From an uncultured Bacilli bacterium (GTDB lineage Bacteria; Bacillota_I; Bacilli_A; ML615J-28; CAG-313), in the NCBI GenBank assembly GCA_934140285.1, contig CAKPBI010000001.1, positions 211,515-275,514 on the forward strand: a stretch of 64,000 nucleotides of DNA, read 5' to 3'. Numbering within the stretch: position 1 is the stretch's first letter; each line of letters starts with the position of its first letter. This document shows positions 26,546 to 45,299 of the stretch, in pieces. Below the pieces are notes generated by a model. It saw only the letters and a list, made by a program, of their open reading frames with translations. It made no database searches and was not told the DNA's origin. The translations under genes and the position numbers were made by a program.

Positions 26546-26574
26546 TTGCATTATAGTCTTAAATTTGGTATAAT
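26546..26574 (+). promoter_or_regulatory. Sigma-A promoter of the arsR-ATPase operon
   Basis: TTGCAT-17-TATAAT; followed by the imperfect inverted repeat ATATAA-N9-TTATAT (26583-26605), a candidate ArsR operator. Confidence 0.55.
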
Positions 26575-26627
26575 TATTTAGTATATATAAACATGTGCTT
26601 ATATGAGAATGAAAGAAAGGTGAAAGC

Positions 26628-29935: not shown

Positions 29936-30666
29936 AGTTTGATATTTTAACATTATTTCCCGAAATGTTTACTAATTATTTTAATAGTTCAATTTTAAAA
30001 AGAGCAATTAACAATAATATAATTGAATGCAATACCATTGATTTTCGTGAATACTCAGGTAATAAACATAATACTGTTGATGATTATTCATATAGTGGAG
30101 GAGCGGGAATGTTAATTCGTGTTGATCCCATTCATCGAGCTCTTACCCATATCAAAGATTATGAAAAAGCATATGTTATTTTAACATCACCTAGTGGTAC
30201 TCAATTTAATCAAAAGAAAGCCCTTGAACTTTCTAAAAAAGAACATTTAATAATTATATGTGGCCATTATGAAGGCGTTGATGCAAGAGTTCTTAACTAT
30301 GTTGATGAAGAAATATCTATTGGTGATTATGTCTTAACAGGTGGTGAAGTTCCTGCTCTTGTGATCGTCGATTCTGTGAGTCGCTTAATACCAGGTGTAA
30401 TCAGTGAGGACTCGATAAGTACAGAATCTTTCAATGATGATTTGTTAGAATATCCTCAATATACAAGACCACAGGAATATGATGGACATAGTGTCCCCGA
30501 AATCCTTTTATCAGGTCATCATGCGAAAATAAAAAAATGGCAACGATATGAAGCCCTTAAGAAAACCTTACTTGTAAGACCTGATTTATTAGAAAAAGCA
30601 ACGCTAACCCCTGAAGACTTAGCAATGATTGAGGAAATTAAAAATGAAATATGTAAAGAAGATTAG
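29932..30666 (+). CDS. trmD: tRNA (guanine37-N1)-methyltransferase
   Basis: FDILTLFPEMF motif; SPOUT fold motifs; synteny. Confidence 0.95.
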   Translation: MKFDILTLFPEMFTNYFNSSILKRAINNNIIECNTIDFREYSGNKHNTVDDYSYSGGAGMLIRVDPIHRALTHIKDYEKAYVILTSPSGTQFNQKKALELSKKEHLIIICGHYEGVDARVLNYVDEEISIGDYVLTGGEVPALVIVDSVSRLIPGVISEDSISTESFNDDLLEYPQYTRPQEYDGHSVPEILLSGHHAKIKKWQRYEALKKTLLVRPDLLEKATLTPEDLAMIEEIKNEICKED

Positions 30667-31144
30667 TTGTCTCCTTTTAGTAATAATATATATATTATCA
30701 ATTACTGGATGTAAGAAGACATATATATATCATAATGAAAAGGCAGTAGATTATTTGAATGCATATTATGAATATCTGAGTGATGAAAAACAAGATTTTA
30801 TTGGAATCGATTTAAGAGATTTAGAAACAGCATATGCTTCTGGTCACTTAAAAGGATTTATAAGTTATAACTATAACTTAAAAAGAAAAAGTACAGAAGA
30901 TGAAACTACATACTTACAAAGATGTAGTACAGCTTTTCAAAGTTGGATTCGTCAAAATGTTGATAAAAGAACAACAATCTTTTTGATTGATCAAAATGGA
31001 ACAAACGTTCTATCAGAAGCGGTAAAACTAAAATCTAGTGGATATAAAAATATTCATATTTACGCAGAAGGATATAAAACATTAAATGAATATAACCACA
31101 ACATAATCCCCATTATAACAGGAATTGAAGATTGTGGCTGTTAG
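30644..31144 (+). CDS. Lipoprotein with a rhodanese-like fold in which the active-site Cys is replaced (IDQNG)
   Basis: Lipobox ITGC; IDLRDLETAYASGHLKG pattern; start is ATG 30644 (track start 30629 is TTG). Confidence 0.5.
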   Translation: MKYVKKISCLLLVIIYILSITGCKKTYIYHNEKAVDYLNAYYEYLSDEKQDFIGIDLRDLETAYASGHLKGFISYNYNLKRKSTEDETTYLQRCSTAFQSWIRQNVDKRTTIFLIDQNGTNVLSEAVKLKSSGYKNIHIYAEGYKTLNEYNHNIIPIITGIEDCGC

Positions 31145-31155
31145 AAAGGAAAAAC

Positions 31156-34131
31156 ATGAAAAAAAGAATATTTAGTCTATTATTTTTAATATTATCTTTA
31201 GTATTAATTACCTCATGTCAATTAATAGGTACTACTACTAAATATAATATAACTTATTATGTAGATGGTGAAGTAATTGAACATACACCATCAAGTTATG
31301 AAGAAGGAAAAGTTACTAAACTTAACCCACTTGATAATGATAATTTTGAAGGATGGTATTTAAGTGAAACTTTTGAAGGAAACCCTATTGTTCAAATTGA
31401 AGTAGACCAAACTGGAGATATTAGTTTGTATGCGAAAATGAAAAATGATGTTCCAACTCCTTCAGTTAAAGAACTAGAAGATGCTCTTAATGATTTAGAA
31501 AGTTTTGCTTATAATGTTTCATACGTTATTGATGGACTTACTCGTGCTTCTTATAGTTATGAATTCTACAAAAATAGCTATAAAGCAATGTTTCAATATG
31601 AAGATTCATCAATCAATTATGAATATTTAGCATATGTTAATGATGTATACTATTATTATGGATTATATGAAGATGGCACATATTATAGTATTGATGAATC
31701 AAATCAATTCTTTAGTTCATATATTGCTTACTTGGATTTAATTGATTTATCAAGTATTGATACTTCTAAATTCATGTTCAAAAATGGTCAATACATTCTA
31801 AAAGATTCTAAACAAACATCAGAAGTTGCTAATGATATATTCTGCACTATGGATAAAGAATATACTAATTTAGCAATTGAATTATTTGAAGGTAAATTAT
31901 ATAAACTATTTGTAACTGTCGCATCATTAACTCAAAATATATCATATGAAGTAAGTTTCTCAAATCATAATAAAGTTGAATTTACTTTACCAAATGCTAC
32001 TCCACTTGAGACAGTAACAACTATCGCCAAAGCAAAAGAAGCAAGGGAAGGCGAAAGTGTAACTGTTACTGGTTCAGTATCTGGTATAGTAGGCAACAAT
32101 TTCTATATTCAAGATGAAACTGGCGGAATATATATATATTGTGGAAGCAGCAATGATGCTTTAAATGACCTTACTATAGGTACTGTTGTTACGGTAACAG
32201 GTGTTAAAGAAACATATAAAGGTCTTGTTGAAATTAAATCGATATTAAGTATTGAGATAATTGGAAATAGTGAACTTTCCACAAAAAATCTTGAAACTCT
32301 AAAAAAAGATGAATTAGACTTATATGTAGGTATGAATGTTAGTTTCCAAAACTTTTTGGTTACAGCAGTCCCTCAATCATTTAATTCTTCATCTGATAAT
32401 AGCTTTACTATTTCTGATGGTACAAACACGACAACATTATTTGTTTCTAAACATCTAAATAATGCTTTAGGTGATGAAACTTATAATTTACTTGCTTCCC
32501 TAAATGTTGGTGATGTTATCAATGTAAGTAGTGCAGTAATTAGTTATTTTAACAAACCACAAGTTGCGGTAACAGCGAATACTGTTATAACTCTTGGAAC
32601 TTTAGAAGCAACTCTTGTTGCTTCTCCTACAAGAATCCGTGTAAAAGAAAATACTTCATTTGAGGAAGCTATCAAATCTTTAGTAGTAACCTTTAATGAT
32701 GTTGATGGCACATCTAAAGTACTTTCTAGAGATGAATATACATTAAACTCTGTTGATTACAAAACAACTGAGGGAGAATACGAAATAGAAGTAACATATA
32801 ATGATTTAACTACAATCTTTGTAATTGTGGTAACAACTGGATCAACTAAACCTACAACAATCCCTAAAGATACTACACGTCTTGAAGATATCATTAGAGA
32901 TATGGGAAAAGACGAAACAACAGGTGAAGTTTATGGGGTTACTCGCGGACTTCCTTCAATTGGCAATCCTAAAGTATTAGTAATTCCTATTTCATTTACC
33001 GATTATCCTGCTCCAAGTGATATGGTAAATAATCTTGAAAGAGCCTTCTTTGGTGATTCATCTACAACAGGATGGGAAAGCTTAAGCAGTTATTATCAAA
33101 AGAGTTCATATGGAAAATTAAATATCGAAGGTACAGTATTACCAGTATTCCAAACAGGTAAAGAAGCTTCATATTATGATGCTAAAGACAAAGGTGACTA
33201 TGAAATTATTCAAGCTGCTCTAAAGTATTATGATAAAGACATTGATTATTCCGAATACGATAGTGATAAAGATGGATATATTGATTCAATATACCTTGTA
33301 TATACTTGTGAAATAAATAGAAATGATGATAATAGTATGTGGTGGGCATATACTTATGAATACTTTACAGATGATATTGAAAAATATGATAATGTTGAAG
33401 CAGACTTCTATTTACTTGCTGGTTATGACTTCTTAACAGAAATTCCAGCATCAGGTAAAACATTAAAGTATAATTTAGAAACATTCATTCATGAAACAGG
33501 TCATTTACTAGGTTTAGATGATTACTATGATACTGACACCTCAAAAGGCCCCGCAGGTGGTCTTGGTGGTGGTGACATGATGGACTATAATGTTGGTGAT
33601 CATAATCCGTTCTCTAAAGCAATCCTTGGATGGGTAGATCCACTTGTAATGGGAGATGATGATGCAACTATTACACTTAGATCATTTGGTTCTACTGGTG
33701 ATTGTTTGATTATTGCTAAAAACTTTAACAATTCATTATTTACAGAATACTTCATTATTGATTTCTATACTCCAGATGGATTAAATCAAATGGAAGCTGG
33801 TTATAGTGGTTTATTCTCAAAGAGTGGTATACGTATTTATCATATTGACGCAACCCCTAACGATCCAACAAAAGGTGTATCAATTTGGGATGTTTATAAA
33901 TATAACAATAGTAGTACTGACCATCGCCTAATCTCATTGGTAGAAGCTGATGGTAATAATGATATTGAAGGTGATGATATATATGGTGGTTCATCATCTA
34001 ATAGTGATTTATTCCAAGCAAAAGATGTTTGGTCAACTGCTAAATGGTATGATGGTAGTGATGCCGGTTTCGTTTTAGAGGTTGTATCAATCAATAATTC
34101 GGAAGCTGTAATTAATATTTCATTTAAATAA
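31156..34131 (+). CDS. Lipoprotein: LB repeat + OB-fold + M6 (immune-inhibitor-A)-like zinc metalloprotease
   Basis: Lipobox LITSC; HEXXH motif in FIHETGHLLGLDDYYD; OB-fold segment VTVTGSVSG..FYIQDETGGIYIY. Start is ATG 31156 with RBS AAAGGA. Confidence 0.7.
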   Translation: MKKRIFSLLFLILSLVLITSCQLIGTTTKYNITYYVDGEVIEHTPSSYEEGKVTKLNPLDNDNFEGWYLSETFEGNPIVQIEVDQTGDISLYAKMKNDVPTPSVKELEDALNDLESFAYNVSYVIDGLTRASYSYEFYKNSYKAMFQYEDSSINYEYLAYVNDVYYYYGLYEDGTYYSIDESNQFFSSYIAYLDLIDLSSIDTSKFMFKNGQYILKDSKQTSEVANDIFCTMDKEYTNLAIELFEGKLYKLFVTVASLTQNISYEVSFSNHNKVEFTLPNATPLETVTTIAKAKEAREGESVTVTGSVSGIVGNNFYIQDETGGIYIYCGSSNDALNDLTIGTVVTVTGVKETYKGLVEIKSILSIEIIGNSELSTKNLETLKKDELDLYVGMNVSFQNFLVTAVPQSFNSSSDNSFTISDGTNTTTLFVSKHLNNALGDETYNLLASLNVGDVINVSSAVISYFNKPQVAVTANTVITLGTLEATLVASPTRIRVKENTSFEEAIKSLVVTFNDVDGTSKVLSRDEYTLNSVDYKTTEGEYEIEVTYNDLTTIFVIVVTTGSTKPTTIPKDTTRLEDIIRDMGKDETTGEVYGVTRGLPSIGNPKVLVIPISFTDYPAPSDMVNNLERAFFGDSSTTGWESLSSYYQKSSYGKLNIEGTVLPVFQTGKEASYYDAKDKGDYEIIQAALKYYDKDIDYSEYDSDKDGYIDSIYLVYTCEINRNDDNSMWWAYTYEYFTDDIEKYDNVEADFYLLAGYDFLTEIPASGKTLKYNLETFIHETGHLLGLDDYYDTDTSKGPAGGLGGGDMMDYNVGDHNPFSKAILGWVDPLVMGDDDATITLRSFGSTGDCLIIAKNFNNSLFTEYFIIDFYTPDGLNQMEAGYSGLFSKSGIRIYHIDATPNDPTKGVSIWDVYKYNNSSTDHRLISLVEADGNNDIEGDDIYGGSSSNSDLFQAKDVWSTAKWYDGSDAGFVLEVVSINNSEAVINISFK

Positions 34132-34140
34132 AAAAGAAAA

Positions 34141-34175
34141 TAATGCCGGATAATTTATCCGACATTATTTTTCTA
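34141..34175. terminator. Bidirectional terminator between the protease gene (+) and cvfB (-)
   Basis: ATGCCGGATAA-tt-TATCCGACAT followed by TATTTTTCT. Confidence 0.7.
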
Positions 34176-35031
34176 TTAAAGTAATCTTGTAATCTTCAAT
34201 ACTAATTAAACGTTTTTTATAAAGAGCTCCAACTGCTCTTTTAAAAGCACTCTTACTCATTTTAAAAAACTTACTGATATCTTCAGGAGAAGAAGCATTA
34301 CCAAGAGGGACAATTCCTCCCATTTGTTTTAGATAGTTATATATAGTATCACTATCACTAAGTCTTGAATATTCTTTTCTTTCAATTGTTGATGCATAGT
34401 ATTCTCCATGCTCATTAATATGAATTACTTTACATGTAACTTCCTCACCCAAGTGATAGTTTTTACGAAGATAGTTTTTATGAATAAAAACAAATTGAAA
34501 CTCTCTTGTACAAACAGTAATTCCTGCTTGAGTAATCTTTGATACATTTCCACTGATTGTTTGGTCTACTTTAAGTTTTGGTGGTAAAACTTTAACATCA
34601 TTAGGAGTAATAATTCTTGCGACCAACTGATGTTGTTTTTCAATTAAAATACAAGGCACTTCCTCATCTATTTTTGGCCATGCCTTTATTGAGCTTGGTA
34701 GAAAGTCTTTGGATAATAATATGTCTTTTGCGATATTTATATTAACAAATGCTCCCGCATTTTCTAGTATATTTACCACCTTTACAAATCCATAATTAGA
34801 AGTTGTAATTAAAGGATCTTCCATAGTTGCACATAATCTTTTCTTTTGGTCATAGTAAAGAAAGGCTTTTATCTTTTCTCCTGGCTCAAGTTTTCTTGTT
34901 GCTTGATTAAAATGTAAAAAGACATAAGTAGTTAATTCATCATCATCAGGACTAAGTGTATAGCTAATGTCAGTTTCTCTTTTTACAATAAATCTATTTA
35001 CTTCTCCAATATGTAAAGGCATATATATCAC
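34165..35031 (-). CDS. cvfB: CvfB/YitL-family S1-domain RNA-binding protein
   Basis: Tandem S1-like beta-barrels plus a C-terminal winged helix (GIVPLGNASSPEDISKFFKMSKSAFKRAVGALYKKRLI). Confidence 0.75.
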   Translation of the reverse strand: MIYMPLHIGEVNRFIVKRETDISYTLSPDDDELTTYVFLHFNQATRKLEPGEKIKAFLYYDQKKRLCATMEDPLITTSNYGFVKVVNILENAGAFVNINIAKDILLSKDFLPSSIKAWPKIDEEVPCILIEKQHQLVARIITPNDVKVLPPKLKVDQTISGNVSKITQAGITVCTREFQFVFIHKNYLRKNYHLGEEVTCKVIHINEHGEYYASTIERKEYSRLSDSDTIYNYLKQMGGIVPLGNASSPEDISKFFKMSKSAFKRAVGALYKKRLISIEDYKITLIEK

Positions 35032-35187
35032 TCCTTTTTTCTTTAATATATCATATCATAAATACAAAAAAAATAAGTCATTTTTACATTTAAAGATAAA
35101 AGCCTCCAAGGTTATATTAAATAAAATAAATAATTTAAGGTTTAAAGAAAAAAATTAATCATTTAAAGGGATTAAAAAAAATAAGTA

Positions 35188-35196
35188 TGATATAAT
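35188..35196 (+). promoter_or_regulatory. Extended -10 promoter element (TGATATAAT) for the giant lipoprotein gene
   Basis: TGnTATAAT lies 50 nt upstream of the ATG; no strong -35. Confidence 0.45.
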
Positions 35197-35201
35197 CTAA
35201 A

Positions 35202-35221
35202 TTGTGAAAAGGCTTTCACAA
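35202..35221 (+). promoter_or_regulatory. cre-like perfect palindrome TTGTGAAA-aggc-TTTCACAA between the -10 and the RBS
   Basis: 8-bp perfect inverted repeat; the core TGAAAAGGCTTTCA is one mismatch from the cre consensus WTGNAANCGNWNNCW. Confidence 0.4.
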
Positions 35222-35246
35222 ATTTAAAAAGAGAAAGAGGTAAGTA

Positions 35247-38200
35247 ATGAAAAAAGGATTTTTATTATTGGTAGCATGTCTACTAACCCTTGGTATTATT
35301 GCCTGCCAAACTACATCGGCAGAGCTTAGTATCGAGAATAAAGATGTTTCTCTAGAAGTTGGAGAAACTCATAAGCTAGATGTAAAAGTCGTAAATGATG
35401 ATGATCCAATCTTTTCTTATAAGGTTGTTGACCCATCTATCGTACGTGTAGAAAAAGGCATCGTAACAGCTCTTAGAGAAGGTGAAACAGATGTTGAAAT
35501 TGGCGTAAAATATGTCAAGGGAAATAAAGTAACTGTTCACTTCACAGTAAAAGATAATCGTAAGATATCCCTAAGTGCTGATTCCGTTTATTTGAAAGCG
35601 GGAGAAACAACTAAGTTAGAGATACTTCCTAAAGATGTCTTCTTAGTAGACGATACTTGTGTTTGGTCATCAAGTGATCCAAGTGTTGCGACTGTAAAAG
35701 ATGGTATTGTTAAAGCAATAGGTGCTGGAACAGCAATCATCAGTGTTGAAGTTGATGGACTAAAAGCTGAAATTACAATTGCTGTTGAAAAAGAAGTTGA
35801 TGTAATTAAACCTGAGTTTATACTTGGTGAAGGCATTGCAGAGAAAAACTTCTTAAACTGGAATAAACCATTTAATCCACTTGATGGTATTCAAGCAATT
35901 GATAATGTTGATGGTGACATAACTTCTAAGATTGAAGTAGTAGGTGAAGTTGATAATCAAACATATGGTTTCTATGAATTAACTTATCGAGTTCAAGATG
36001 AAGCAGGTAATAAAGCTGAGTTTAAACGTACAATTGAAGTTGTATGGAACTATGATGTTACTTTCATTGGTCACGCTGGTAGTTACTACGGATTAATGAA
36101 TTCCGAAGAAGCATTCCTATATGCGGTACAAGTATTAAAATACCAAGCTTTAGAGTGTGATTTAAAACAAACATCCGATGGCGTTTTTGTAATGAGTCAT
36201 GATGAAACATTTGGTGGTTATACTATTTCAACAACTCCATGGAGTGTACTAAAAGATGTTGAAGTAACAAAGAGTAGAAAAGCTGGTTTCCCTGCACAAA
36301 ATGGAAGTGTAACCAAAGATACTTATACAACAAAACTTTGTACATTAGAGCGTTACCTAGAGATTTGTCGTCAATATAACGCAAAAGCAGTAATTGAGCT
36401 AAAATCATCAGCAGGTATTACAAACTCTGATCAATCAAGAATGCAAGCATTAATGGATGAAATTGAAAAAGCAGGAATGCGAGAAGATACTATTTTCTTA
36501 GGTTCACAATATAACTGTTTAATATGGACAAGAGAGAATGGCTATTCAGATGTTGAATGTCAATATCTAGTAAACTCATGTGAAAGCGATACAATTTTAG
36601 AAAGATGTAAAAAATATGATCTAGATGTAAGTATTAACGTTACTGCTAGCTATTCAAATAGTGAAGAATGGCTTGCTAAATACAAAGAAGCAGGATTAAA
36701 GATTTCTACATATACATTTACTCAATATGTTGATTATCCAACTGTTCAAGAATGGATCAATAAAGGTGCTGACTATGTAACATGTGATTGGCAATTAATG
36801 AGTAAACTAAATTTACCAGAATCTTCAAATGATCCTGATTCTAATATAACTCATAAAGTTATTTTTAAAGATTATGATGGAAAAGTATTAAAAGAAGCGG
36901 TAGTTAAAGATGGTCGTGCAGCCGCAGCGCCTAAAGATCCAACTCGTCTTGGATATAGATTCACTGGTTGGGATAAATCAATCGTAAATGTAAAACAAGA
37001 CCTTGAAGTAACTGCATTATATGAAATTTGTGAATACACAATTACATATGATAAAAACTTAACAACAATAATTAAATCAAAATGGAATAACAAGGATGAA
37101 TTTGTAAATGAACTTTATACTGATTTATATAATTGGTTTATAACAAATGCTGAATATATTTCAACATATGTTCAAGTTCAAAATGGTAAAGTTACAATAA
37201 CTAAGAATGGTCAAACTACTTCATTCAGTAATGTAGAAGAACTAAAAGCAATAGATATATATGTATTTGAAAAAACTGTATCTAATTTTATTTATCAACC
37301 TGTTAAACGTGATAGTGAAGGAAAAGCCGTAATAGAACATTCAGAAAGTTATTTCTTAAATAGTGATGCTTATCGTGAAAAATATCAAGCAATGGATCAA
37401 TATTTCTATAATGCTGTTAAGAATGGTTACCCAGCATATGATAATACGTATACACCAACATCAGCTGGTAAAATCCAAATTCTATTCCGTTTCCATCAAT
37501 GGGTAAAAGGAACAACAATTGCAGCATTTAATGAACTTCCTGCAAAATACATTGTAAAAGATAATAACGAAGTACAAGCAGAACTTCCAACAACTAATCT
37601 AAAATATACAGTTGAAGATGAATTTGATTTACCATCGGCAACTGCTAATGTTAATTTCTTAGGTTGGTTCTTAGATAGAGAATGTACTATAGCAATTACT
37701 AAGATAACAAAAGGTATGACTGGTAATTTAGTACTTTATGCAAAATGGGAATATACAATTCCAGTAGTAAATTCAAAAATTACATTTGAACTAGATGGTG
37801 GAGAATTTGAAGAAGGATATGTTGTTCCTACAACATATGAAGAAGGAAAAGAATTAGTCTTAGCAACTCCAGTTAAAGAAGGATATATATTCCTTGGCTG
37901 GACTCTTGAAAAAGATAGTACTGAATATATCACATCAATTTCTGCAGCTCAAACTGGTGATGTAACTGTTTATGCAGCATGGAAAGAAGAAGCAGTAGCT
38001 GTTGATGAAATTTTAGTTGGTCCTAATGAAGAGTACAAAACAATTAAAGATGCTCTTCTTGTTGCAACGACAAATACTAAGATATATGTTAAATCTGGTA
38101 CATATAGTGAAGATTTAGTTGTAGCTTATGACGGAATTCAATTAATTGGTCCAAACTCAGGAATGGATGGAACAAGTGATAAACGAGCAGTAGAAGCTAT

Positions 38201-41200
38201 AATTAGTGGAAAAATAACAATTTCTAAAAATGTGAAAGATGTTAAAATTTTAGGTTTCAACCTAACAAATACAACTTCAGTTTATGGTGAAGGTGACAAT
38301 GAAAATATTGTTGTTAAATATAATGTAATTGAAGGAACAGCTGCATCAGCTGGAACATCAGGTGCCGGAATTGGTCAAATCCATTTTGTTGGTGCCATCA
38401 TTAATTTAGTTGTTGAACACAATAAATTTACTTTAAAATCTAATGTTAATTATTATTCTTGTGTTTATAGCCAAGGCTTAATCACAGGTGCAGAAATTAA
38501 CCATAACTATGTTACAAATAATTGTTCAACATCACAAAATGTCTTTGCATTCTGGTTAAGAAATGCTGCAGGTGTTATTAATATGAATGAAAATATCGCA
38601 TATCGTTTTGCTGGAAACTACTGGACTTTCTGGGTTGGTCAAGATAAACTTGCTGAAAACACAAAGATAACAATGCGTGATAATAACTTTGATAGTGATA
38701 GTGCAGCAAATGCTGAATGTGGAATGGCTGTTCATCATGCTGAATACGAATCAATCGAAATTAATTATATTGGTAATACATTTAGTTATTGTAAGGATAC
38801 TGTATTTAGTGTACAAGGTAAATCAACTACTGATACTACATCTACTCCTCATATAACTATCATGTATAATAAAATCTTAAATACTTCTGCAAGAATGAGA
38901 TTCTGTGTTAATGCGAAAAACTTCTACTTTGGTAAGAACTATTCAGCACTTGCATACACTGATCAAGGTACACCAAATATTAAAGCAGCAGAAATTGCAA
39001 AAGATGATTTCAAATCAACAATGGAATTAGATGATGCATATGCTGAAACAAAAATGTGTGCAATTAATTATGAACTTGATGGTGGAACTCTTCCAGAAGG
39101 TGCTCCTACTAAATATCTACCAGGATATGCAACAAGATTAGTTGCTCCTACAAAAGATGGATATAAGTTCTTAGGTTGGTCACTAACAAAAGATGGTAAT
39201 GAATATATTACCCTTATTCCAGAAACTGCAACAGGAGATCTTACTCTATATGCAAAATTTAAAGAAATTAAACCATCACTAATGGTTGGTGAGGGACAAA
39301 CATACAAAACATTAGAAGAAGCCCTTGCTGCTGCAACTGATGGTGATACAATTGAATTTGTATCAGGAACTTACGCAGGTGGCACTATTGCTAAGAGCGT
39401 AACAATCATTGGTCCTAACAAGGACATTAATCCAAATAAGGATACAAGACAAAATGAAGCAATCTTTACTTCAGATCTAATTATTGAAGCAAATAATGTG
39501 GAAATCAATGGTATTACATTAACTGGTGAAGCTCGTATTGTTGGATCTGAATCAACTTCAATCGAAAACTTAACAATTAATTATATATTATTTGATAACT
39601 CTAAAGTTGCTGGTTCTAAAACTGCACCATTCTACTTTGTACCTGCTACTGGCGTATCATACAAGAATGTAGTAATTAAATATTCTCGTATAAACAAAGG
39701 TACTGGTCGTCAAATGATACTTTATGGATTAGAGTTTGAAAACTTAACAATTACAAACAATGAATTCTATGGTCCATATCAAACATATAATGATGGTATT
39801 AAAATTGATGATATCGGTGCATTTGGTACTAAAGGAGAAATAAATATTTCTGATAACGTATTTGATGGATATCAACAATATGTTATTTGGTTCTTAAGAT
39901 ATAGTTATGGTAACTATACAATTGAAAGTAATAAATACAATAACATTGGTCTTGCTGAATACCATGCAGGTGTAACATTCAAGACTTACTCAGGTTCTAA
40001 AGATGATGAACTAAAAATTAATTATCGTTTTAATAAAATTACAAATGGTTATATGCTATTTAGATTCGAAGAAGCAAAAGTTTTAAATGGCGACAATTGC
40101 ATGATTAATGTTAATTACAATATTCGTGAAAATTGTAGTGGCGATTTATTTGTTAAGAATGTAAACCCAGATGTAATAGTAAATGCTGACAAAAACTATT
40201 GGGGTACAACAACTCTATTAGAAAAGAATTTCTTAAATGTTACAACATATGCTGATGCATATCAAAATGCTCAAGATGTTCCATCAAAAGAAGAAGTTGA
40301 AGGTGGATCTAGTGAAACTAAGATTTACTCAAAAATCATCTATGTATTAGATGGTGGTGAAGTATCAGCATCAACTCGTTATTTAGAAGGAAAAGAATAT
40401 ATTCTTCCAATCCCAACAAAAGAGGATTATCGCTTTGTTGGATGGAGTTTAACTCCAGATGGAAGTCAAATTATTACAGCGATTTCTACAACAACAACAG
40501 GTGATGTTACTGTTTATGCGATTTGGGAAGCCATTGAATATTACAACATTACATATATATATAATGGAGGATATTCAAATGAAGGTCTATACCAAAATCG
40601 TGGTGAAAATCCAATTGCTATAACTATTAATAACTATAATAATAGTGATGGTTCATTCTGGAGTGGCAAATATGCAACTGACATTTTCATTACTGATTCA
40701 TCATGTGATCCAAAAGCCACTTTCTCTGACCGTATTTATATTGCTAAAAATAAAGAAAACGGATTATATGAAGTAGTAAGCTTCCTACAATCAGGTGCAT
40801 CATCATGGCCTGAAGGTGCAGAATATGTAATATCTATTTCTAATTCTTATAATGCCTATTATTTAAATATTAAGCCAATAACTAATAAAATTAAAGTTGG
40901 TCAATATGTAGTATTTGGTGGAAATATCGAATCAATTAATAATGCAAATCCTACAGAAGTATGTTTCTTTGATGAACTTCCTACATGTGATCAAGTCACA
41001 GTTAAAGTAGGAACTAACGATGAATTAATTAAACCAGGACTTCTTGGCTATAAATTCTTAGGTTGGTTTGAAAATGATAAACTCATCACATCAATCTCTG
41101 AACTAAAAGGTGATACAACACTAAGTGCTAAGTGGGAAGCTTTAAATCCTGCAACAGGCATTAAGATTGATGCTTTCAAAGACGAAATGCTTACAAATGA

Positions 41201-42797
41201 AGAATTCCAAATTATAGCTTCAATTGAACCAAGTGATGCATACTTTAAAACAGTATACTATGAATCAAGTAATACTGATATTCTTCAAGTTACATCAACA
41301 GGATTAGTAAAAGCAATCAATGTTGGTACTGCTAAGATAACTATGCGTGACTATATGAGCTTAGTTGTTGTTGAAAGAGAAATAACTGTATATTCACATG
41401 ATTCAATTGATGCAAGTTTTGAAGGTGTATACAATGGAACAATTAAGCCAGAAGATACACTCCAATTAAATGTTAAAGCATTTGGTAAAAATGCAGCCTC
41501 TGCAACATTTGTATTTGAATCATTAAATCCAGAAATTGTTTCTGTATCTGCAACTGGTTTAATTACAGCTATAAAAGATGGCTATGCAGAAATATTAATT
41601 AAGACAGTTGGTATGGAAGCTAACCTAACAATTGGTGTTACTGTTAAATCATTAGGAAATGAAACAAGTATTGATAAATTATTATCATTATTAGTAAATG
41701 GTCATTTCTCAACAGTACAAAGTGGCAACGTAAGCTTATATAATGATGGTACAACTAAAGTATTTGTTCCAACATATGGAAGTGTAAATAGATTCTTATT
41801 TGATGAATATGTTGTTAATGAAACATATTATGCAAAAACTGAAACGAACCCAAATAATCACAAAGATCGTCGTGACGTTGATACAATTGAATTCGTAACT
41901 ATTCATGATACAGCAACTCTTACTGGTACCGTTGAATCAATTGCTCAAGTAATGTCATCAGGCGAAACATCAATTCATTATACAGTTGGTAATGATGCGA
42001 TATTTGGTGTTGTACCAGAAAAATACATTGCATACCATGCTGGTGATGGAACTAAGAATACATTTGTTTGGACTAAGACAAATGCAAAAGCAACACAAAA
42101 TGTAAAACCTGAATATGATGTAGTCAATGTTGACGGAAAATACTACTTAAGTGTAAATAATGAAGTAACGACAATTACTATTCCAAGTACGGGAACAAAA
42201 GAACCAACAAAAGATTTATTCACTCATTTAGGTCCTGTATGGAAAGTTATTGATGGCTATTATTACATTGGCGGACCATTATGGTATTCTGATTATGGAA
42301 GAATTTCATCATTTGGTGGAAACTGTAATTCAATTGGTATTGAAATGTGTGTTAATACATCAGGTGATATATATGATACATGGCAAAGAACCGCAATGCT
42401 TGTTGCAGATATCTTAATTAGAAATAATCTTGATCCAACCAGAGTTAAGCAACACAATACATGGTCAGGTAAGAACTGTCCTCAATCTGTAATTGAAGGA
42501 AGCTTCTGGCAATGCATGATGGAAATGATCGAACTACAATATGAAGTAAGAACTAAATATAAAGATGCAAAAATTTCGATTGTATCTCATAATCCTGAAA
42601 TTGTTGATAACACTGGTAGAGTAATTAGTGCTCCTGAAAAAACAACAACAGTAGCTTATACATTAAAAGTTGAACTAAATGGTGAAACAAGAGAAATCAA
42701 ACTATATAGTGTTATTCCTGGTACAACTACTTGGGAACAATGGAATGGAAGCTATCCTGCAAGTAGAATTTGGAACAATAAGGTATATGCACGTTAA
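35247..42797 (+). CDS. Giant (2516 aa) surface lipoprotein. Domain order is Big_2 x2, GDPD-like phosphodiesterase, LB repeats, two right-handed beta-helix modules, Big_2 x2, and a C-terminal MurNAc-L-Ala amidase (amidase_2)
   Basis: Lipobox GIIAC; RBS AGAGGTAAG; domain motifs are listed in the sub-features. Confidence 0.9.
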   Translation: MKKGFLLLVACLLTLGIIACQTTSAELSIENKDVSLEVGETHKLDVKVVNDDDPIFSYKVVDPSIVRVEKGIVTALREGETDVEIGVKYVKGNKVTVHFTVKDNRKISLSADSVYLKAGETTKLEILPKDVFLVDDTCVWSSSDPSVATVKDGIVKAIGAGTAIISVEVDGLKAEITIAVEKEVDVIKPEFILGEGIAEKNFLNWNKPFNPLDGIQAIDNVDGDITSKIEVVGEVDNQTYGFYELTYRVQDEAGNKAEFKRTIEVVWNYDVTFIGHAGSYYGLMNSEEAFLYAVQVLKYQALECDLKQTSDGVFVMSHDETFGGYTISTTPWSVLKDVEVTKSRKAGFPAQNGSVTKDTYTTKLCTLERYLEICRQYNAKAVIELKSSAGITNSDQSRMQALMDEIEKAGMREDTIFLGSQYNCLIWTRENGYSDVECQYLVNSCESDTILERCKKYDLDVSINVTASYSNSEEWLAKYKEAGLKISTYTFTQYVDYPTVQEWINKGADYVTCDWQLMSKLNLPESSNDPDSNITHKVIFKDYDGKVLKEAVVKDGRAAAAPKDPTRLGYRFTGWDKSIVNVKQDLEVTALYEICEYTITYDKNLTTIIKSKWNNKDEFVNELYTDLYNWFITNAEYISTYVQVQNGKVTITKNGQTTSFSNVEELKAIDIYVFEKTVSNFIYQPVKRDSEGKAVIEHSESYFLNSDAYREKYQAMDQYFYNAVKNGYPAYDNTYTPTSAGKIQILFRFHQWVKGTTIAAFNELPAKYIVKDNNEVQAELPTTNLKYTVEDEFDLPSATANVNFLGWFLDRECTIAITKITKGMTGNLVLYAKWEYTIPVVNSKITFELDGGEFEEGYVVPTTYEEGKELVLATPVKEGYIFLGWTLEKDSTEYITSISAAQTGDVTVYAAWKEEAVAVDEILVGPNEEYKTIKDALLVATTNTKIYVKSGTYSEDLVVAYDGIQLIGPNSGMDGTSDKRAVEAIISGKITISKNVKDVKILGFNLTNTTSVYGEGDNENIVVKYNVIEGTAASAGTSGAGIGQIHFVGAIINLVVEHNKFTLKSNVNYYSCVYSQGLITGAEINHNYVTNNCSTSQNVFAFWLRNAAGVINMNENIAYRFAGNYWTFWVGQDKLAENTKITMRDNNFDSDSAANAECGMAVHHAEYESIEINYIGNTFSYCKDTVFSVQGKSTTDTTSTPHITIMYNKILNTSARMRFCVNAKNFYFGKNYSALAYTDQGTPNIKAAEIAKDDFKSTMELDDAYAETKMCAINYELDGGTLPEGAPTKYLPGYATRLVAPTKDGYKFLGWSLTKDGNEYITLIPETATGDLTLYAKFKEIKPSLMVGEGQTYKTLEEALAAATDGDTIEFVSGTYAGGTIAKSVTIIGPNKDINPNKDTRQNEAIFTSDLIIEANNVEINGITLTGEARIVGSESTSIENLTINYILFDNSKVAGSKTAPFYFVPATGVSYKNVVIKYSRINKGTGRQMILYGLEFENLTITNNEFYGPYQTYNDGIKIDDIGAFGTKGEINISDNVFDGYQQYVIWFLRYSYGNYTIESNKYNNIGLAEYHAGVTFKTYSGSKDDELKINYRFNKITNGYMLFRFEEAKVLNGDNCMINVNYNIRENCSGDLFVKNVNPDVIVNADKNYWGTTTLLEKNFLNVTTYADAYQNAQDVPSKEEVEGGSSETKIYSKIIYVLDGGEVSASTRYLEGKEYILPIPTKEDYRFVGWSLTPDGSQIITAISTTTTGDVTVYAIWEAIEYYNITYIYNGGYSNEGLYQNRGENPIAITINNYNNSDGSFWSGKYATDIFITDSSCDPKATFSDRIYIAKNKENGLYEVVSFLQSGASSWPEGAEYVISISNSYNAYYLNIKPITNKIKVGQYVVFGGNIESINNANPTEVCFFDELPTCDQVTVKVGTNDELIKPGLLGYKFLGWFENDKLITSISELKGDTTLSAKWEALNPATGIKIDAFKDEMLTNEEFQIIASIEPSDAYFKTVYYESSNTDILQVTSTGLVKAINVGTAKITMRDYMSLVVVEREITVYSHDSIDASFEGVYNGTIKPEDTLQLNVKAFGKNAASATFVFESLNPEIVSVSATGLITAIKDGYAEILIKTVGMEANLTIGVTVKSLGNETSIDKLLSLLVNGHFSTVQSGNVSLYNDGTTKVFVPTYGSVNRFLFDEYVVNETYYAKTETNPNNHKDRRDVDTIEFVTIHDTATLTGTVESIAQVMSSGETSIHYTVGNDAIFGVVPEKYIAYHAGDGTKNTFVWTKTNAKATQNVKPEYDVVNVDGKYYLSVNNEVTTITIPSTGTKEPTKDLFTHLGPVWKVIDGYYYIGGPLWYSDYGRISSFGGNCNSIGIEMCVNTSGDIYDTWQRTAMLVADILIRNNLDPTRVKQHNTWSGKNCPQSVIEGSFWQCMMEMIELQYEVRTKYKDAKISIVSHNPEIVDNTGRVISAPEKTTTVAYTLKVELNGETREIKLYSVIPGTTTWEQWNGSYPASRIWNNKVYAR
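36046..36795 (+). other. GDPD-like (glycerophosphodiester phosphodiesterase / PI-PLC-X-like) domain with H-A-G in place of the usual H-R-G
   Basis: FIGHAGSYYG followed by ECDLKQTSDGVFVMSHDETF, which corresponds to the E.D..T.DG..V..HD motif. Confidence 0.55.
37995..39010 (+). other. Right-handed parallel beta-helix module 1 (pectate-lyase-like)
   Basis: Opening segment VGPNEEYKTIKDALLVATTNTKIYVKSGTYSE, then repetitive rungs with N/G at turns. Confidence 0.55.
39290..40250 (+). other. Right-handed parallel beta-helix module 2
   Basis: MVGEGQTYKTLEEALAAATDGDTIEFVSGTYAG opening parallels module 1; NxxI rungs. Confidence 0.55.
41870..42520 (+). other. C-terminal amidase_2 (MurNAc-L-Ala amidase) domain carrying the same inserted subdomain as the 1-3543 protein
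   Basis: IEFVTIHDTA..AYHAGDG..IGIE..KQHN..GKNCPQ. Confidence 0.7.
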
Positions 42798-42799
42798 TA

Positions 42800-42838
42800 A
42801 AAAAGGTGTCTCATTAATTTGAGACACCTTCTCTTCAT
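42800..42838 (+). terminator. Terminator after the giant gene
   Basis: AAGGTGTCTCA-ttaattt-GAGACACCTT; weak U-tract. Confidence 0.6.
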
Positions 42839-42973
42839 AAAAATAAAAAGATATATTTCTTGCAAAAAATAAGAAGATATGATATAATAATAAAGCAATA
42901 CATGGTATTCCGCTGATATAAACCAAGTTGATATGGAATATGAATGAATACCAGAAGATAAAGGAGAGATAAT

Positions 42974-43324
42974 ATGAGTCAACAATTAATTAAAGCAGTA
43001 ACTCAATCTTACATGAGAAATGATGTTCCTGAATTCCGTCCAGGTGACACTGTAAAAGTACATGTTAAGATTAAAGAAGGTGACCGCGAAAGAATCCAAA
43101 TTTTTGAAGGATTAGTAATTGGCCGTCATGGTGGTGGCATTAGTGAAACTTACACAGTTCGTAAGATTTCATCTGGTGTTGGAGTTGAAAGAATTTTCCC
43201 TGTTCATTCACCAATGGTTGCTAAAATTGAAGTTGTACGTCTTGGTCGTGTACGTCGTGCTAAACTTAACTACATCCGTGGTTTATCAGCTAAATCTGCA
43301 AGAATCAAAGAACGTCGTAACTAA
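42974..43324 (+). CDS. rplS: 50S ribosomal protein L19
   Basis: Canonical L19 sequence ([23 protein letters not shown]). Confidence 0.97.
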
Positions 43325-43484: not shown

Positions 43485-45299
43485 ATGGAAGAAAGTAAAA
43501 ATAAAATGATTGTAAAAACAATAATAGGTACAGTATTATTTGTTTTAGCAATTGCTGTAATTATTGTAAGCACAATGATTAAACGTCCAGTTGTTAAATT
43601 TGTTAATGACGATGGAAGTGTAATAGCAGAGGTAAAAACTGCTATCGGTAAAGCTGCTACACAACCTGCTGTTAAGAATTTAACATCTAGTAAAACTCCT
43701 GAAAAAGGATATAGATATGTATTTGCTGGATGGGAACCAAGTATAGAAAATATTCAAAAGGATACCACTGTGACAGCAAAATATAATAAGGTTGCAGTAT
43801 TTTATACAATTACTTTTGAATTAAATGGTGGAAGTTTTAGTGCAAGTACAACTATACCAACAAATTATACAGTTGAAAAAGAAGTTAATTTACCAACTCC
43901 TACAAGAGAAGGTTGTACTTTCTTAGGTTGGAAGGATGCATCTGGAACTGCAGTTACTAAAATTGAACAAGGTGAAATTGGAAATAAAGTTTTCACAGCA
44001 TCTTGGAATGCTCCAACTCATAAGATTACCTATGAACTAAATGGTGGAACTTGTGATAACCTAGTTACTTCATTTACAATTCTAGATAGCTTTAAACTAC
44101 CAACACCAACAAAAGAAAATATGGTATTTACTGGTTGGTATACTTCACCTGATTTTAATGAAGATTCATTAATTACAGAAATTAAATTAGGCACTGATGA
44201 AGACATTACTCTTTATGCAGAATGGTCATATAATGTTACTTATGAACTAGATGGTGGTTTTAACGAAAGATTAACAGCTACTACATATAATAGTTCAAAA
44301 GGATTGAAACTTTCTGTTCCAACTAAATATGGTTATCGTTTTGATGGTTGGTATAGTGAACCTGAATTTATAAATAAAATAGAATCAATCGCCAAAGGAA
44401 CTAATGAAGATATTACTTTATATGCTAAATTCCTACCAGCTGAAGATGGCGTTGTCTTCGTTGAAAATGGCAAAAAATATGTATTCTTCGGAAGTTATGT
44501 TCAAAGTGTTGTTACAGATGCTGAAACTATCAATGCATTAAAAGCTCTTTCAACAGATGCTAAATCTGAAGAAATTGTATATAATGGTAAAAAGTATGTA
44601 AAAGTAGAACCTACCCCTGCTAATTCAATTTATCAATTTGATAGACTTACTTATTATAGAAATACTCCAACTATGACAATTGGAACAAGTAAAGAAGTTA
44701 ACTATTATTACTTCAATGTTGATCCAATTAAATGGAGAGTAATTAGTGAAGATAATGACACAATGACTTTATTTAGTGAATATGTTTTAGATGTTTATAA
44801 GTTTAATGAAACTGCAAATAACGACTACGAAAAATCACAAATTAAATCATGGTTAAATGAAGTGTTCTACAAAAATGCTTTTAGTGAAGCTCAACAACAA
44901 AGAATAGTAAAAACTAAAGTTGACAACTCTGCTTCAACAACATATGCATCAAGTAATCCAATGGCATCTAATGACACAGAAGATTTTGTTTTCTTACTAT
45001 CTTATGCTGATGTAACAAACGCAAAATATGGCTTTAGTTCTTCATTTGATGTTAATGATATTAATAGAAAAGGAATTGCAACAGAATACTTACGTGCTAA
45101 AGGAATTAAAATATCTCCACTATATGCTAACTATGCTAACTGTGACTGGATGTTAAGATCACCATTCTCAAAAGAAGATGGCATAAGTATTGTTAGAGGA
45201 ATGACAGAAAACTTCCAACTTACACCTAATACTGTTGAAAGATATTCAAATGTAACAAAAGAATATGGTGTAAGACCAGCAATTACAATTACAAAATAA
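43485..45299 (+). CDS. N-terminally membrane-anchored surface protein: 4 LB repeats plus a C-terminal DUF6273-like domain
   Basis: Signal-anchor IIGTVLFVLAIAVIIV; GY-F-GW..LYA-W repeats; C-terminal CDWMLRSP..GVRPAITI. Confidence 0.7.
   Translation: MEESKNKMIVKTIIGTVLFVLAIAVIIVSTMIKRPVVKFVNDDGSVIAEVKTAIGKAATQPAVKNLTSSKTPEKGYRYVFAGWEPSIENIQKDTTVTAKYNKVAVFYTITFELNGGSFSASTTIPTNYTVEKEVNLPTPTREGCTFLGWKDASGTAVTKIEQGEIGNKVFTASWNAPTHKITYELNGGTCDNLVTSFTILDSFKLPTPTKENMVFTGWYTSPDFNEDSLITEIKLGTDEDITLYAEWSYNVTYELDGGFNERLTATTYNSSKGLKLSVPTKYGYRFDGWYSEPEFINKIESIAKGTNEDITLYAKFLPAEDGVVFVENGKKYVFFGSYVQSVVTDAETINALKALSTDAKSEEIVYNGKKYVKVEPTPANSIYQFDRLTYYRNTPTMTIGTSKEVNYYYFNVDPIKWRVISEDNDTMTLFSEYVLDVYKFNETANNDYEKSQIKSWLNEVFYKNAFSEAQQQRIVKTKVDNSASTTYASSNPMASNDTEDFVFLLSYADVTNAKYGFSSSFDVNDINRKGIATEYLRAKGIKISPLYANYANCDWMLRSPFSKEDGISIVRGMTENFQLTPNTVERYSNVTKEYGVRPAITITK

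Follow-up and report, generated by a model that had tools for sequence, protein, structure and literature searches.

Wall hydrolases with several domains form a well-known class, and none of the findings below contradicts current understanding. The staphylococcal autolysin Atl/AtlE is bifunctional, with an amidase and a glucosaminidase on one polypeptide; Atl has wall-targeting repeats, is cleaved to give separate enzymes and lacks a lipid anchor. The roles of the His, His and Cys (or Asp) zinc ligands and of the catalytic Glu in the Amidase_2 family are known from PlyL and XlyA, and solved GDPD structures have given the roles of two catalytic His residues and a Glu/Asp/Glu metal site. The GDPD domains of GlpQ (B. 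subtilis, S. aureus) and WhyD (S. pneumoniae) are able to hydrolyse wall teichoic acid (PMC7086022, PMC9208761). WhyD is membrane-anchored, tailors the wall teichoic acid of its own cell and controls an amidase, LytA (PMC9208761). The title of a study cited in the same paper states that S. aureus scavenges the wall teichoic acid of other staphylococci. DigH is specific for the denuded glycans generated by amidases, and DigH-like enzymes act in self cell separation too (PMC12288456).

The 2516-aa protein described here is a new domain combination of this known kind, a multidomain cell-wall hydrolase. Like Atl/AtlE, it is one large secreted protein encoding several wall-cleaving activities (here predicted), including an Amidase_2 domain. 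Unlike Atl, it has no recognisable glycosidase and it carries in addition a GDPD domain and beta-helix modules. An earlier note on this DNA called it a complete toolkit for dismantling a Gram-positive wall; this goes too far, as neither a glycan-strand-cleaving nor an endopeptidase domain can be recognised in the protein.

The window is the whole 64,000 nt stretch of DNA that was analysed and positions are counted from its first letter. The ORF at 35247..42797 (+) begins with ATG, has GAGG approximately 7 nt 5' of the start codon and was judged to be real. Forty members of its 75-member 90% cluster were read; the protein is intact in most of them and 2516-2517 aa long in 14 of the 15 listed. 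All of those read are metagenome- or MAG-derived and labelled 'Bacilli bacterium', and the NCBI product name is only 'InlB B-repeat-containing protein'. The features of the protein are given in Table 1.

Table 1. Features of the 2516-aa protein and of its paralog, with positions in the window
Feature	Residues (aa)	Position	Strand	Basis
Signal peptide with lipobox MKKGFLLLVACLLTLGIIA-C20, Cys20 predicted lipidated		35247..35306	+	Sequence; pattern in relatives
Two Big_2 Ig-like domains	21-183	35307..35795	+	Pfam Big_2, HL_N-beta; mapping onto homologs
Bact_surface_Ig-like	184-268	35796..36050	+	PF16403
GDPD-type phosphodiesterase domain	269-525	36051..36821	+	Pfam, PDB matches, invariant columns
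Flg_new (Listeria-Bacteroides) repeat 1	533-595	36843..37031	+	Pfam, homolog mapping
Module 'unk1'	596-780	37032..37586	+	Conserved 37-70% in P0002-7
Flg_new repeats 2-3	781-915	37587..37991	+	Pfam, homolog mapping
Beta-helix module 1	916-1268	37992..39050	+	Paralogy with module 2; profile A1
Flg_new repeat 4	1269-1335	39051..39251	+	Pfam, homolog mapping
Beta-helix module 2	1336-1700	39252..40346	+	AF2 model, Foldseek, conservation
Flg_new repeat 5	1701-1766	40347..40544	+	Pfam, homolog mapping
Module 'unk2', predicted alpha/beta	1767-1900	40545..40946	+	Model pLDDT ~85-92
Flg_new repeat 6	1901-1962	40947..41132	+	Pfam, homolog mapping
Two Big_2/Big-like domains	1963-2137	41133..41657	+	Pfam; fold matches to tandem Ig proteins
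Amidase_2 domain with N-terminal extension	2138-2425	41658..42521	+	Pfam, XlyA/PlyL/PlyG alignment
~86-aa beta-strand subdomain inside amidase	~2271-2356	42057..42314	+	Alignment gap vs XlyA
C-terminal beta domain	2426-2492	42522..42722	+	Model pLDDT ~95
Aromatic tail TTTWEQWNGSYPASRIWNNKVYAR, with stop codon	2493-2516	42723..42797	+	Conservation
Paralog, C-terminal 1180 aa of 1485-aa lipoprotein		1..3543	+	31% identity over 867 aa

The lipobox, G16-I-I-A-C20, is preceded by MKK and a hydrophobic stretch and fits the PROSITE-type pattern [LIVMFWSTAG]2-[LIVMFYSTAGCQ]-[AGS]-C after a positive n-region and a hydrophobic h-region. Of 25 relatives checked, 22 have the pattern, and so does the 1485-aa paralog, in agreement with the earlier proposal that the protein is a lipoprotein. 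An NCBIfam match ('BLB8/JUQZ-1', aa 1-99) was discarded; it is sub-threshold (24.6 vs 40 bits) and reflects the signal peptide and Big_2. The bulk of the protein's length consists of Ig-like or Flg_new repeats. Six stretches of Flg_new (E 1e-53) and four of Big_2 (E 1e-20) are above the Pfam gathering score, so both of these assignments, made earlier from the sequence, are confirmed. Bact_surface_Ig-like (PF16403) is also above its gathering score (aa 207-265, E 2e-14) and always lies directly N-terminal to GDPD, both in relatives P0002-8 and in stand-alone lipoproteins of approximately 445 aa. There is no known wall-binding module among the Pfam families matched by the protein.

Amidase_2 (PF01510; cut-off 26 bits) matches aa 2213-2413, scoring 55.3 bits when the whole protein is scanned and 61 bits when the segment is scanned alone. 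H2220, E2366, H2403 and C2411, presumed to serve in zinc binding and catalysis, fall on the corresponding residues of XlyA and do not vary among 20 relatives (29-70% identity). H2264-A-G-D2267 and K2409 are likewise invariant. The amidase_2 claim of the earlier note is therefore well founded. The nearest solved amidases are XlyA (3hmb), PlyL (1yb0) and PlyG (2l47), with E values from 3e-11 (XlyA) to 2e-6, and the His, Glu, His and Cys positions align in all of them. In contrast with these lysins, the protein has a beta subdomain of approximately 86 aa after HAGDG, an N-terminal extension of approximately 80 aa and a C-terminal beta domain of its own. The subdomain sits between HAGDGT and GGNCNSIGIE and has six predicted strands (pLDDT ~70-88). 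Consistent with this, the Pfam match covers 200 aa for a 131-position profile, so that this is not the compact domain of ~130-160 residues. Additionally, whereas XlyA, PlyL and PlyG are lysins of ~300 aa, the amidase here ends a 2516-aa lipoprotein that has no cell-wall-binding repeat among its Pfam matches. In this family the C-terminal beta domain always comes after the amidase. The tail behind it is modelled as disordered (pLDDT <50) and is conserved in P0002, P0003, P0170, P0188, P0183, P0187 and P0211. A fold search of the PDB and BFVD with a 750-aa C-terminal model was dominated by tandem Ig (Big_2) matches; a multidomain model was the wrong query, and the search was uninformative for the amidase and its insertion, for unk2 and for the C-terminal domain.

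GDPD (PF03009) matches aa 279-503 with 34.2 bits in the whole protein and 41.1 bits for the segment alone (cut-off 23.6), and there are remote matches to the solved structures 3no3, 3i10 and 2oog (best E 3e-7). The domain has H276, E303, D305, K307, H318, E384 and K386. In 9 sequences the columns of H276, H318, E303, D305, E384 and K386 do not vary, and these residues line up with 3i10 and 2oog. The Arg of the HRG motif, however, is replaced by A277: the motif reads H-A-G in this protein and H-[AGMT]-G in the subfamily as a whole, and ENT reads N-S-E, whereas both motifs are retained in the nearest canonical relatives (27-30% identity). The GDPD-like domain of the earlier note thus stands as far as the Pfam scores, both His residues and the E/D/E metal set are concerned, but the HRG arginine and the ENT motif are gone. 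Like GlpQ and WhyD, the domain belongs to the GDPD fold family, keeps the catalytic His and acidic metal residues and is predicted to be extracytoplasmic; it differs from both in having Ala for the HRG arginine and N-S-E for ENT. WhyD resembles the protein further in being membrane-anchored and coupled to an Amidase_2 autolysin (PMC9208761, PMC7086022). Because the HRG arginine and ENT are missing, the substrate may differ from that of GlpQ, and the domain could be inactive or use a different substrate. Teichoic acid would be a target by precedent only (PMC7086022, PMC9208761).

The two beta-helix modules are paralogous (24% identity, E 7e-10). Module 2 was modelled with AF2 (pLDDT 96.1, pTM 0.94) and its top Foldseek matches in the PDB were all right-handed beta-helix proteins. 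This supports the fold proposed earlier, for module 1 by paralogy only. The matches are weak (E ~1e-3, TM 0.3-0.46, ~12% identity) with no close solved relative, and the enzymes among them (CE8, PL6, tailspikes) score about equally with PfbA, a non-enzymatic adhesin. The predicted fold and the Asn ladder are shared with CE8 pectin methylesterases, PL6 lyases, tailspike depolymerases and PfbA. The N-terminal cap motif is shared with CE8 enzymes; the cap matches pectinesterase 5c1e (E 8e-5) and is the only part that aligns to CE8. Unlike all of these, module 2 forms a family of its own without a Pfam model and no known catalytic signature was recognised in it. At an E-value limit of 10 (HMMER filters drop most matches above ~0.1) no Pfam family matches either module, including PF13229, for which a scan had been suggested, and ten family members gave one Chondroitinase_B match, sub-threshold.

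Residues R1401, E1404, R1488, N1515-D1516, K1519, Q1544-Y1545, W1548 and R1606 of module 2 and its Asn ladder (Asn1537, 1562, 1596, 1625 and 1650) are conserved (36 of 37 sequences). R1488, D1516 and Q1544 are spaced 28 residues apart, about one coil. The conserved R/D/K/Q/Y/W/R set could not be assigned to a CAZy-family signature (CE8, PL6, GH28 and others). In module 1 the residues invariant across 9 relatives are the Asn ladder and Tyr only, with no conserved charged residues and no catalytic signature. Catalysis by the beta-helix modules is putative, judging from these sequences.

An exhaustive profile search found 5193 representatives of the beta-helix family at E<=1e-3, typically sitting between Flg_new repeats; a word-index search with module 2 gave two fragments only. 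The same amidase block is present in 48 of 149 representative beta-helix relatives. Modules are shuffled among the relatives, indicating that they are independent functional units. The paralog (full gene, L006 4273-8730) carries Flg_new, two Big_2 domains, an insertion-bearing Amidase_2 and the same C-terminal domain, and a Na/Pi cotransporter-PhoU gene adjoins it. A literature search for proteins with Flg_new and an amidase returned nothing relevant.

The gene lies between trmD (stop, 30666) and rplS (start, 42974), a distance of 12.3 kb that also holds genes for a rhodanese-like lipoprotein, a 999-aa M6-protease-like lipoprotein and, on the minus strand, cvfB. The protease-like lipoprotein shares repeats with the 2516-aa protein. 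The earlier note had described a 12-kb insertion between trmD and rplS. The length is correct, but the GC content is normal and the gene arrangement is the same around a 65%-identical homolog. With no GC or skew anomaly and with conserved synteny, a recent horizontal insertion was rejected, and the arrangement is a stable, lineage-specific gene order. A 64%-identical homolog is located elsewhere, between polC and an AI-2E transporter gene. There are housekeeping and surface-protein genes in the flanks, and no phage genes.

The window also encodes three GHL10 proteins, one of which is 33% identical to E. coli DigH. The GHL10 cluster includes PBP4B/AmpH-like, M19, PIG-L and GH20 genes and an ABC binding protein. 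As in the E. coli pathway from septal amidase to DigH, amidases and GHL10 proteins are encoded together in the window. In contrast with that pathway, the genes lie 8-17 kb from each other, and the GHL10 genes are among catabolic-looking genes and the ABC binding protein. We infer a functional link between the amidase and the DigH-like genes. However, the downstream GHL10/GH20 cluster, 8-19 kb from the 2516-aa gene, has regulation of its own (LacI) and could be meant for glycans from the host or the diet.

Taken together, the data lead us to favour, with moderate confidence, a very long, lipid-anchored surface enzyme built of modules, with Gram-positive cell-wall polymers as its targets, more likely in material outside the producer's own sacculus. 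Lipidated Cys20 would anchor the protein to the outside of the membrane, and the Ig-like and Flg_new spacers would carry the catalytic modules away from it, the amidase reaching farthest. This amidase would cleave the MurNAc-L-Ala bond to give free stem peptides and denuded glycan. The GDPD domain would cut a phosphodiester, plausibly in a polyol-phosphate wall polymer, with free glycerophosphodiesters as the alternative. The conserved cationic and aromatic stripe of module 2 may bind or cleave an anionic wall glycopolymer, and module 1 probably has a structural or binding role. The favoured targets would be wall debris or neighbouring cells. In what is the weakest step, the fragments released would be processed further by the proteins of the downstream DigH-like, GH20, PBP4B-like and M19 genes. 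An outward or foraging role is favoured by the distance of the amidase from the anchor, the lack of a known wall-binding module among the Pfam matches, the paralog in the same 64 kb, the M6-like protease lipoprotein and the nearby GHL10, PBP4B/AmpH-like, M19, PIG-L, GH20 and ABC genes.

Because the protein is tethered to its producer, which makes peptidoglycan and spores, a self-directed role is equally natural. The protein would then trim the wall of its own cell in separation, turnover or mother-cell lysis, and the GDPD domain would license or restrict the amidase as WhyD does LytA. The membrane tether, the WhyD precedent of an anchored GDPD controlling an amidase (PMC9208761) and the part played by DigH-like enzymes in self cell separation (PMC12288456) agree with this, as do the closest solved relatives (Amidase_2 autolysins and prophage lysins), the stable housekeeping neighbourhood with its conserved synteny and lack of compositional anomaly, and the murC-like gene and spore gene (SASP) of the organism. 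However, no known wall-targeting module is among the matched Pfam families, the amidase is ~2100 residues from the anchor and the 64% homolog occupies a different locus. At least two paralogs in 64 kb and extensive module shuffling are also unusual for a housekeeping autolysin. We regard self-directed remodelling as possible, though on the unlikely side; the earlier note had offered both roles, autolysin and foraging enzyme.

The GDPD domain may have a purpose apart from the wall. It could harvest small glycerophosphodiesters of host or dietary origin, glycerophosphocholine for example, as a source of glycerol-3-phosphate or phosphate, with the amidase functionally unrelated and the fusion as a scaffold for a number of separate enzymes for nutrient acquisition; surface GlpQ lipoproteins of Mollicutes offer a comparison. 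The subfamily also occurs as the stand-alone ~445-aa lipoproteins (Big_2, surface Ig and GDPD) and as GDPD-only proteins of ~254 aa. GDPD is present in just 1 of the 149 beta-helix representatives, suggesting that it is a loosely coupled add-on, and the Na/Pi cotransporter-PhoU gene next to the paralog also speaks for nutrient harvest. Against this, the canonical glycerol-3-phosphate-binding residues (HRG, ENT) are changed, and GDPD and amidase are fused in four independent clusters (the 2516-aa protein, P0002, P0003 and P0005). We consider nutrient harvest of this type improbable.

Wall cleavage outside the producer may also be part of something larger, namely an expanded family of lipid-anchored 'reach-out' wall strippers that make up a gut system dedicated to foraging on peptidoglycan. 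On contact, uncultured spore-forming Bacilli of the gut would dismantle the walls of neighbours, or debris. Stem peptides and anionic polymers would be stripped off by the insertion-bearing amidase together with the cationic beta-helix, phosphate-linked polymers would be freed by the variant GDPD, and the DigH-like/GH20/PBP4B-like/M19 cluster and an ABC importer would consume the denuded glycans and peptides. This extended proposal is speculative and we think it unlikely as a whole.

The protein could instead be mainly an adhesin or surface coat, in which a PGRP-like amidase binds peptidoglycan, the GDPD is inactive and the beta-helices are adhesins like PfbA. Its length is mostly Ig-like or Flg_new repeats, one of the beta-helix matches is PfbA, no charged residue is conserved in module 1, the HRG arginine is lost and the NCBI name refers to InlB B-repeats only. 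On the other hand, 20 divergent relatives all share H2220, E2366, H2403 and C2411, and in the GDPD domain both His residues and the E/D/E/K set are invariant in the 9 sequences compared. Such conservation of catalytic residues is unexpected in binding-only domains, and we therefore regard this explanation as quite improbable. Finally, capture by the chromosome of a prophage lysin or depolymerase, with a tailspike-like beta-helix and an endolysin-type Amidase_2, would account for the nearest solved amidases (XlyA, PlyL and PlyG, prophage or phage lysins) and the tailspike matches, but it was rejected as extremely improbable given the flanks free of phage genes, the lipoprotein signal, the conserved chromosomal synteny with uniform GC and the large, cellular family with its paralogs.

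If the modules are active as proposed, the protein gives entry to a large uncharacterised family, found almost only in uncultured gut Bacilli, in which lipoprotein anchoring and a beta-helix are combined with an insertion-bearing Amidase_2. Such proteins may contribute to peptidoglycan turnover in the gut, either by remodelling the cell's own wall or by harvesting the peptidoglycan and phosphate-rich polymers of other bacteria. The targets for biochemistry are the GDPD subfamily without the HRG arginine, the Pfam-less beta-helix with its cationic stripe and the Amidase_2 with its subdomain.

Several features were absent from the earlier note: the ~86-aa amidase insertion, the loss of the HRG arginine from GDPD, the C-terminal module (2426-2516), unk1 (596-780) and unk2 (1767-1900). 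The segment scanned for unk1 has no Pfam match except a Flg_new repeat at its end, and jackhmmer with unk1 found nothing past close homologs. To the eye, unk1 resembled a helical module that recurs in relatives, but hhalign gave a probability of 3.5% and the idea was dropped. There is no Pfam match to unk2, and comparison of both segments with PDB sequences gave chance-level matches only. Among relatives P0002-8, unk1 comes after GDPD in six of the seven, P0008 being without it, and unk2 is present in 11 of the 149 beta-helix-family representatives.

The open reading frame proposed for the giant lipoprotein in the earlier note was borne out: it runs from 35247 to 42797 on the plus strand and has 2516 codons beginning with ATG. 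A GAGG lies approximately 7 nt 5' of the ATG, within a 216-nt AT-rich intergenic stretch, and rplS, 3' of the gene, has its own good promoter-like site (42860-42888) and is followed by a terminator-like hairpin. NCBI MAGs labelled 'Bacilli bacterium' contain an identical protein, annotated as nothing more than 'InlB B-repeat-containing protein'. The 90% cluster of the protein has 75 members, of which 40 were read; among the 15 of these that are listed, 14 are 2516-2517 aa in length. This near-constant length argues that the gene is intact and that selection maintains it in an uncultured lineage of the gut. Among GTDB species representatives, a Hadza gut MAG is the only one with a relative (64% identity).

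Pfam models for Flg_new (six stretches, E 1e-53), Big_2 (four stretches), Bact_surface_Ig-like, GDPD and Amidase_2 were all matched above the gathering score, and the module order in the table was obtained by mapping segments of the protein onto its homologs. The predicted lipobox also stands: it fits a PROSITE-type pattern and is found in 22 of the 25 relatives checked as well as in a 1485-aa paralog.

Table. Modules of the giant lipoprotein (aa) and genes near it (window positions)
Feature	Position	Strand	Remark
Signal peptide and lipobox	aa 1-20		Cys20
Big_2 x2	aa 21-183		
Surface Ig	aa 184-268		
GDPD	aa 269-525		
Flg_new	aa 533-595		
unk1	aa 596-780		module without known function
Flg_new x2	aa 781-915		
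Beta-helix module 1	aa 916-1268		
Flg_new	aa 1269-1335		
Beta-helix module 2	aa 1336-1700		
Flg_new	aa 1701-1766		
unk2	aa 1767-1900		module without known function
Flg_new	aa 1901-1962		
Big_2 x2	aa 1963-2137		
Amidase_2	aa 2138-2425		
C-terminal beta domain	aa 2426-2492		
Aromatic tail	aa 2493-2516		
999-aa lipoprotein	31132..34131	+	one Flg_new, OB fold, M6-type metalloprotease domain
LacI regulator	from 47925		possible wall-fragment cluster (47925-64000), downstream of giant gene
tyrS	49109-50431		between LacI regulator and serine hydrolase gene
PBP4B/AmpH-like serine hydrolase	from 50444		
PIG-L deacetylase	from 51537		
GHL10 protein	from 52220		signal peptide
M19 dipeptidase	from 55269		
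GHL10 protein	from 56158		signal peptide
GHL10 protein	from 58632		428 aa, 33% identical to E. coli DigH (E 8e-71)
GH20 hexosaminidase	from 60079		
Large ABC solute-binding protein	from ~61897		runs past window end

A profile built from nine GDPD sequences picks up 3no3, 3i10 and 2oog, all solved GDPDs, and across these nine H276, H318, the pair E303-x-D305 and the pair E384-x-K386 are invariant. In the giant lipoprotein Ala stands in for the Arg of the HRG motif, which reads H-[AGMT]-G throughout its GDPD subfamily, and the ENT motif reads N-S-E; relatives at 27-30% identity have both motifs in the canonical form. Because the histidine and metal residues are kept but HRG and ENT are altered, the chemistry has probably been retained and the substrate contacts changed. 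The subfamily also includes free-standing lipoproteins of ~445 aa, made up of Big_2, surface Ig and GDPD, as well as GDPD-only proteins, which shows that it is a self-sufficient unit.

The nearest solved sequences to the amidase are XlyA (E 3e-11) and then PlyL and PlyG. H2220, E2366, H2403 and C2411 align with the zinc ligands and catalytic Glu of PlyL and XlyA, and these residues, like H2264-A-G-D2267 and K2409, do not vary among 20 relatives of 29-70% identity. The predicted catalytic set is complete. In comparison with canonical Amidase_2, however, there are ~86 extra residues (aa ~2271-2356) between HAGDGT and GGNCNSIGIE, which AlphaFold models as six beta strands (pLDDT ~70-88). The beta domain C-terminal to the amidase is predicted confidently (pLDDT ~95) and is followed by a conserved aromatic C-terminal tail, TTTWEQWNGSYPASRIWNNKVYAR (window 42723..42794), which is predicted as disordered (pLDDT below 50); the last 17 residues are modelled in this way despite their conservation. 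The tail is kept in the relatives P0002, P0003, P0170, P0183, P0187, P0188 and P0211 and missing from amidase-block proteins at greater distance; it may serve as a docking peptide or an autoinhibitory one.

The two beta-helix modules are paralogs of each other (24% identity, E 7e-10). No Pfam model matched either of them, nor was the module matched in the beta-helix-family proteins scanned with Pfam. A seven-sequence profile searched against the PDB matches only pectin methylesterases, at the N-terminal cap (E 8e-5), and a phage tailspike, and an exhaustive search with the same profile gave 5193 representatives at E<=1e-3, 162 of which reach E<=1e-30; its matches are all modules within large multidomain proteins. 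The model of module 2 (37-sequence alignment, pLDDT 96.1, pTM 0.94) has short stacked strands, and its top Foldseek PDB matches, weak at TM 0.3-0.46 and ~12% identity, are all right-handed beta-helices (CE8, PL6, tailspikes, RbmB, Pel9A and the adhesin PfbA). The fold suggested previously is confirmed; its family and catalytic status are not. Among module-2-type sequences conservation reaches 86% or more at R1401, E1404, R1488, N1515-D1516, K1519, Q1544-Y1545, W1548 and R1606, and an Asn ladder is conserved too. R1488, D1516 and Q1544 lie at 28-residue intervals, approximately one coil, suggesting that they stack on one face of the module and would form a cationic/aromatic cleft into which an anionic polymer could fit. 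In module-1-type sequences only the Asn ladder and tyrosines are conserved, a pattern more in keeping with structure or binding than with catalysis.

The whole architecture is common to only three 90% clusters (the giant lipoprotein and its relatives P0002 and P0003), and other relatives carry the same modules in reshuffled combinations. Every one of the relatives P0002-8 combines surface Ig, GDPD and Flg_new, and in each but P0008 unk1 comes next. The same Big_2-Big_2-amidase(insertion)-C-terminal block is found in 48 of the 149 top beta-helix representatives, whereas GDPD is found in one (unk2 is in 11). What recurs is thus a lipoprotein with beta-helix and amidase, to which GDPD is a rare addition. 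Where named, the source of family members is 'Bacilli bacterium' MAGs. Multidomain wall hydrolases are already known as a class. What is new is the rare combination of GDPD, two beta-helices and amidase, the insertion-bearing Amidase_2, the Arg-less GDPD subfamily and a beta-helix family that no Pfam model covers, all four in an uncultured lineage.

The trmD-rplS gap is 12.3 kb and holds four genes, encoding a rhodanese-like lipoprotein, the 999-aa lipoprotein, CvfB (minus strand) and the giant lipoprotein. The M6-family domain of the 999-aa lipoprotein (HETGHLLGLDD) scores 107.7 bits with TIGR03296, just below the 110.8 cut-off, and its OB-fold domain resembles the N-terminus of ExeM/NucH nucleases; its gene is conserved beside the giant gene in a second locus, L001. 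Gene order is identical around a 65% homolog of the giant lipoprotein, and a 64% homolog elsewhere has polC on one side and an AI-2E transporter gene on the other. The gap had been described as an insertion, and it is indeed a lineage-specific break in the rimM-trmD-rplS cluster, but the kept synteny and the uniform GC content and skew across the region argue against recent acquisition. The usually compact rpsP-KH-rimM-trmD-rplS cluster is broken twice in this lineage (window 24315..43324; L001). The KH-rimM gap contains genes for a DUF3737 protein (E 2e-103; 25590..26444, plus strand) with repetitive N/D-rich sequence, an ArsR-type regulator and a P-type ATPase. Directly 3' of rplS is a gene (43485..45299, plus strand) for a membrane-anchored protein of 604 aa that has three Flg_new and a C-terminal DUF6273; it is conserved in L001 and adds to the set of Flg_new surface proteins.

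The region from 47925 to 64000 may be a cluster for the use of peptidoglycan or amino-sugar fragments. E. coli DigH was confirmed as a GHL10 protein (453 bits), and denuded glycans left by amidases are its specific substrate (PMC12288456).

The lipid anchor would hold the giant lipoprotein at the membrane with its modules projected outward and the amidase most distal. The amidase would strip stem peptides, the GDPD would cut a phosphodiester bond, either of a wall polymer or of a small diester, and module 2 may bind or cleave an anionic glycopolymer. Precedent comes from GlpQ and WhyD, according to which a GDPD domain can hydrolyse wall teichoic acid and the hydrolysis can be linked to an Amidase_2 autolysin (PMC7086022, PMC9208761). 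To call the protein a complete toolkit for dismantling a Gram-positive wall, as the earlier note did, is an overstatement: the amidase has its full predicted catalytic set and the GDPD its His/metal set, but nothing in the protein can be recognised as a glycan-cleaving or endopeptidase domain, and the beta-helix modules are at most candidate catalysts. We lean toward a foreign wall or debris as the target because the amidase would be distal, no matched Pfam family is a known wall-binding module, the paralogs are diversified and catabolic-looking genes lie nearby. Action on the producer's own wall would account for the protein almost as well, given the lipid tether, the stable housekeeping locus and, by analogy, the WhyD/LytA and amidase/DigH precedents.

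The window begins inside the gene for the 1485-aa paralog, a lipoprotein with lipobox VLVSC (window 1..3543, plus strand; full gene at 4273-8730 of locus L006). It contains Flg_new repeats, helical modules, two Big_2 and, as in the giant lipoprotein, the insertion-bearing Amidase_2 followed by the C-terminal domain, and lacks the GDPD and beta-helix modules. Its identity is 31% to the giant lipoprotein over 867 aa and 48% to the relative P0005. Just upstream of it (L006 1959..4003) are a SASP gene and a gene for a Na/Pi cotransporter-PhoU fusion. Taken with a murC-like gene in the organism and Spo0A near the giant-lipoprotein homolog in locus L002, the SASP gene points to a walled lineage that appears to form spores.
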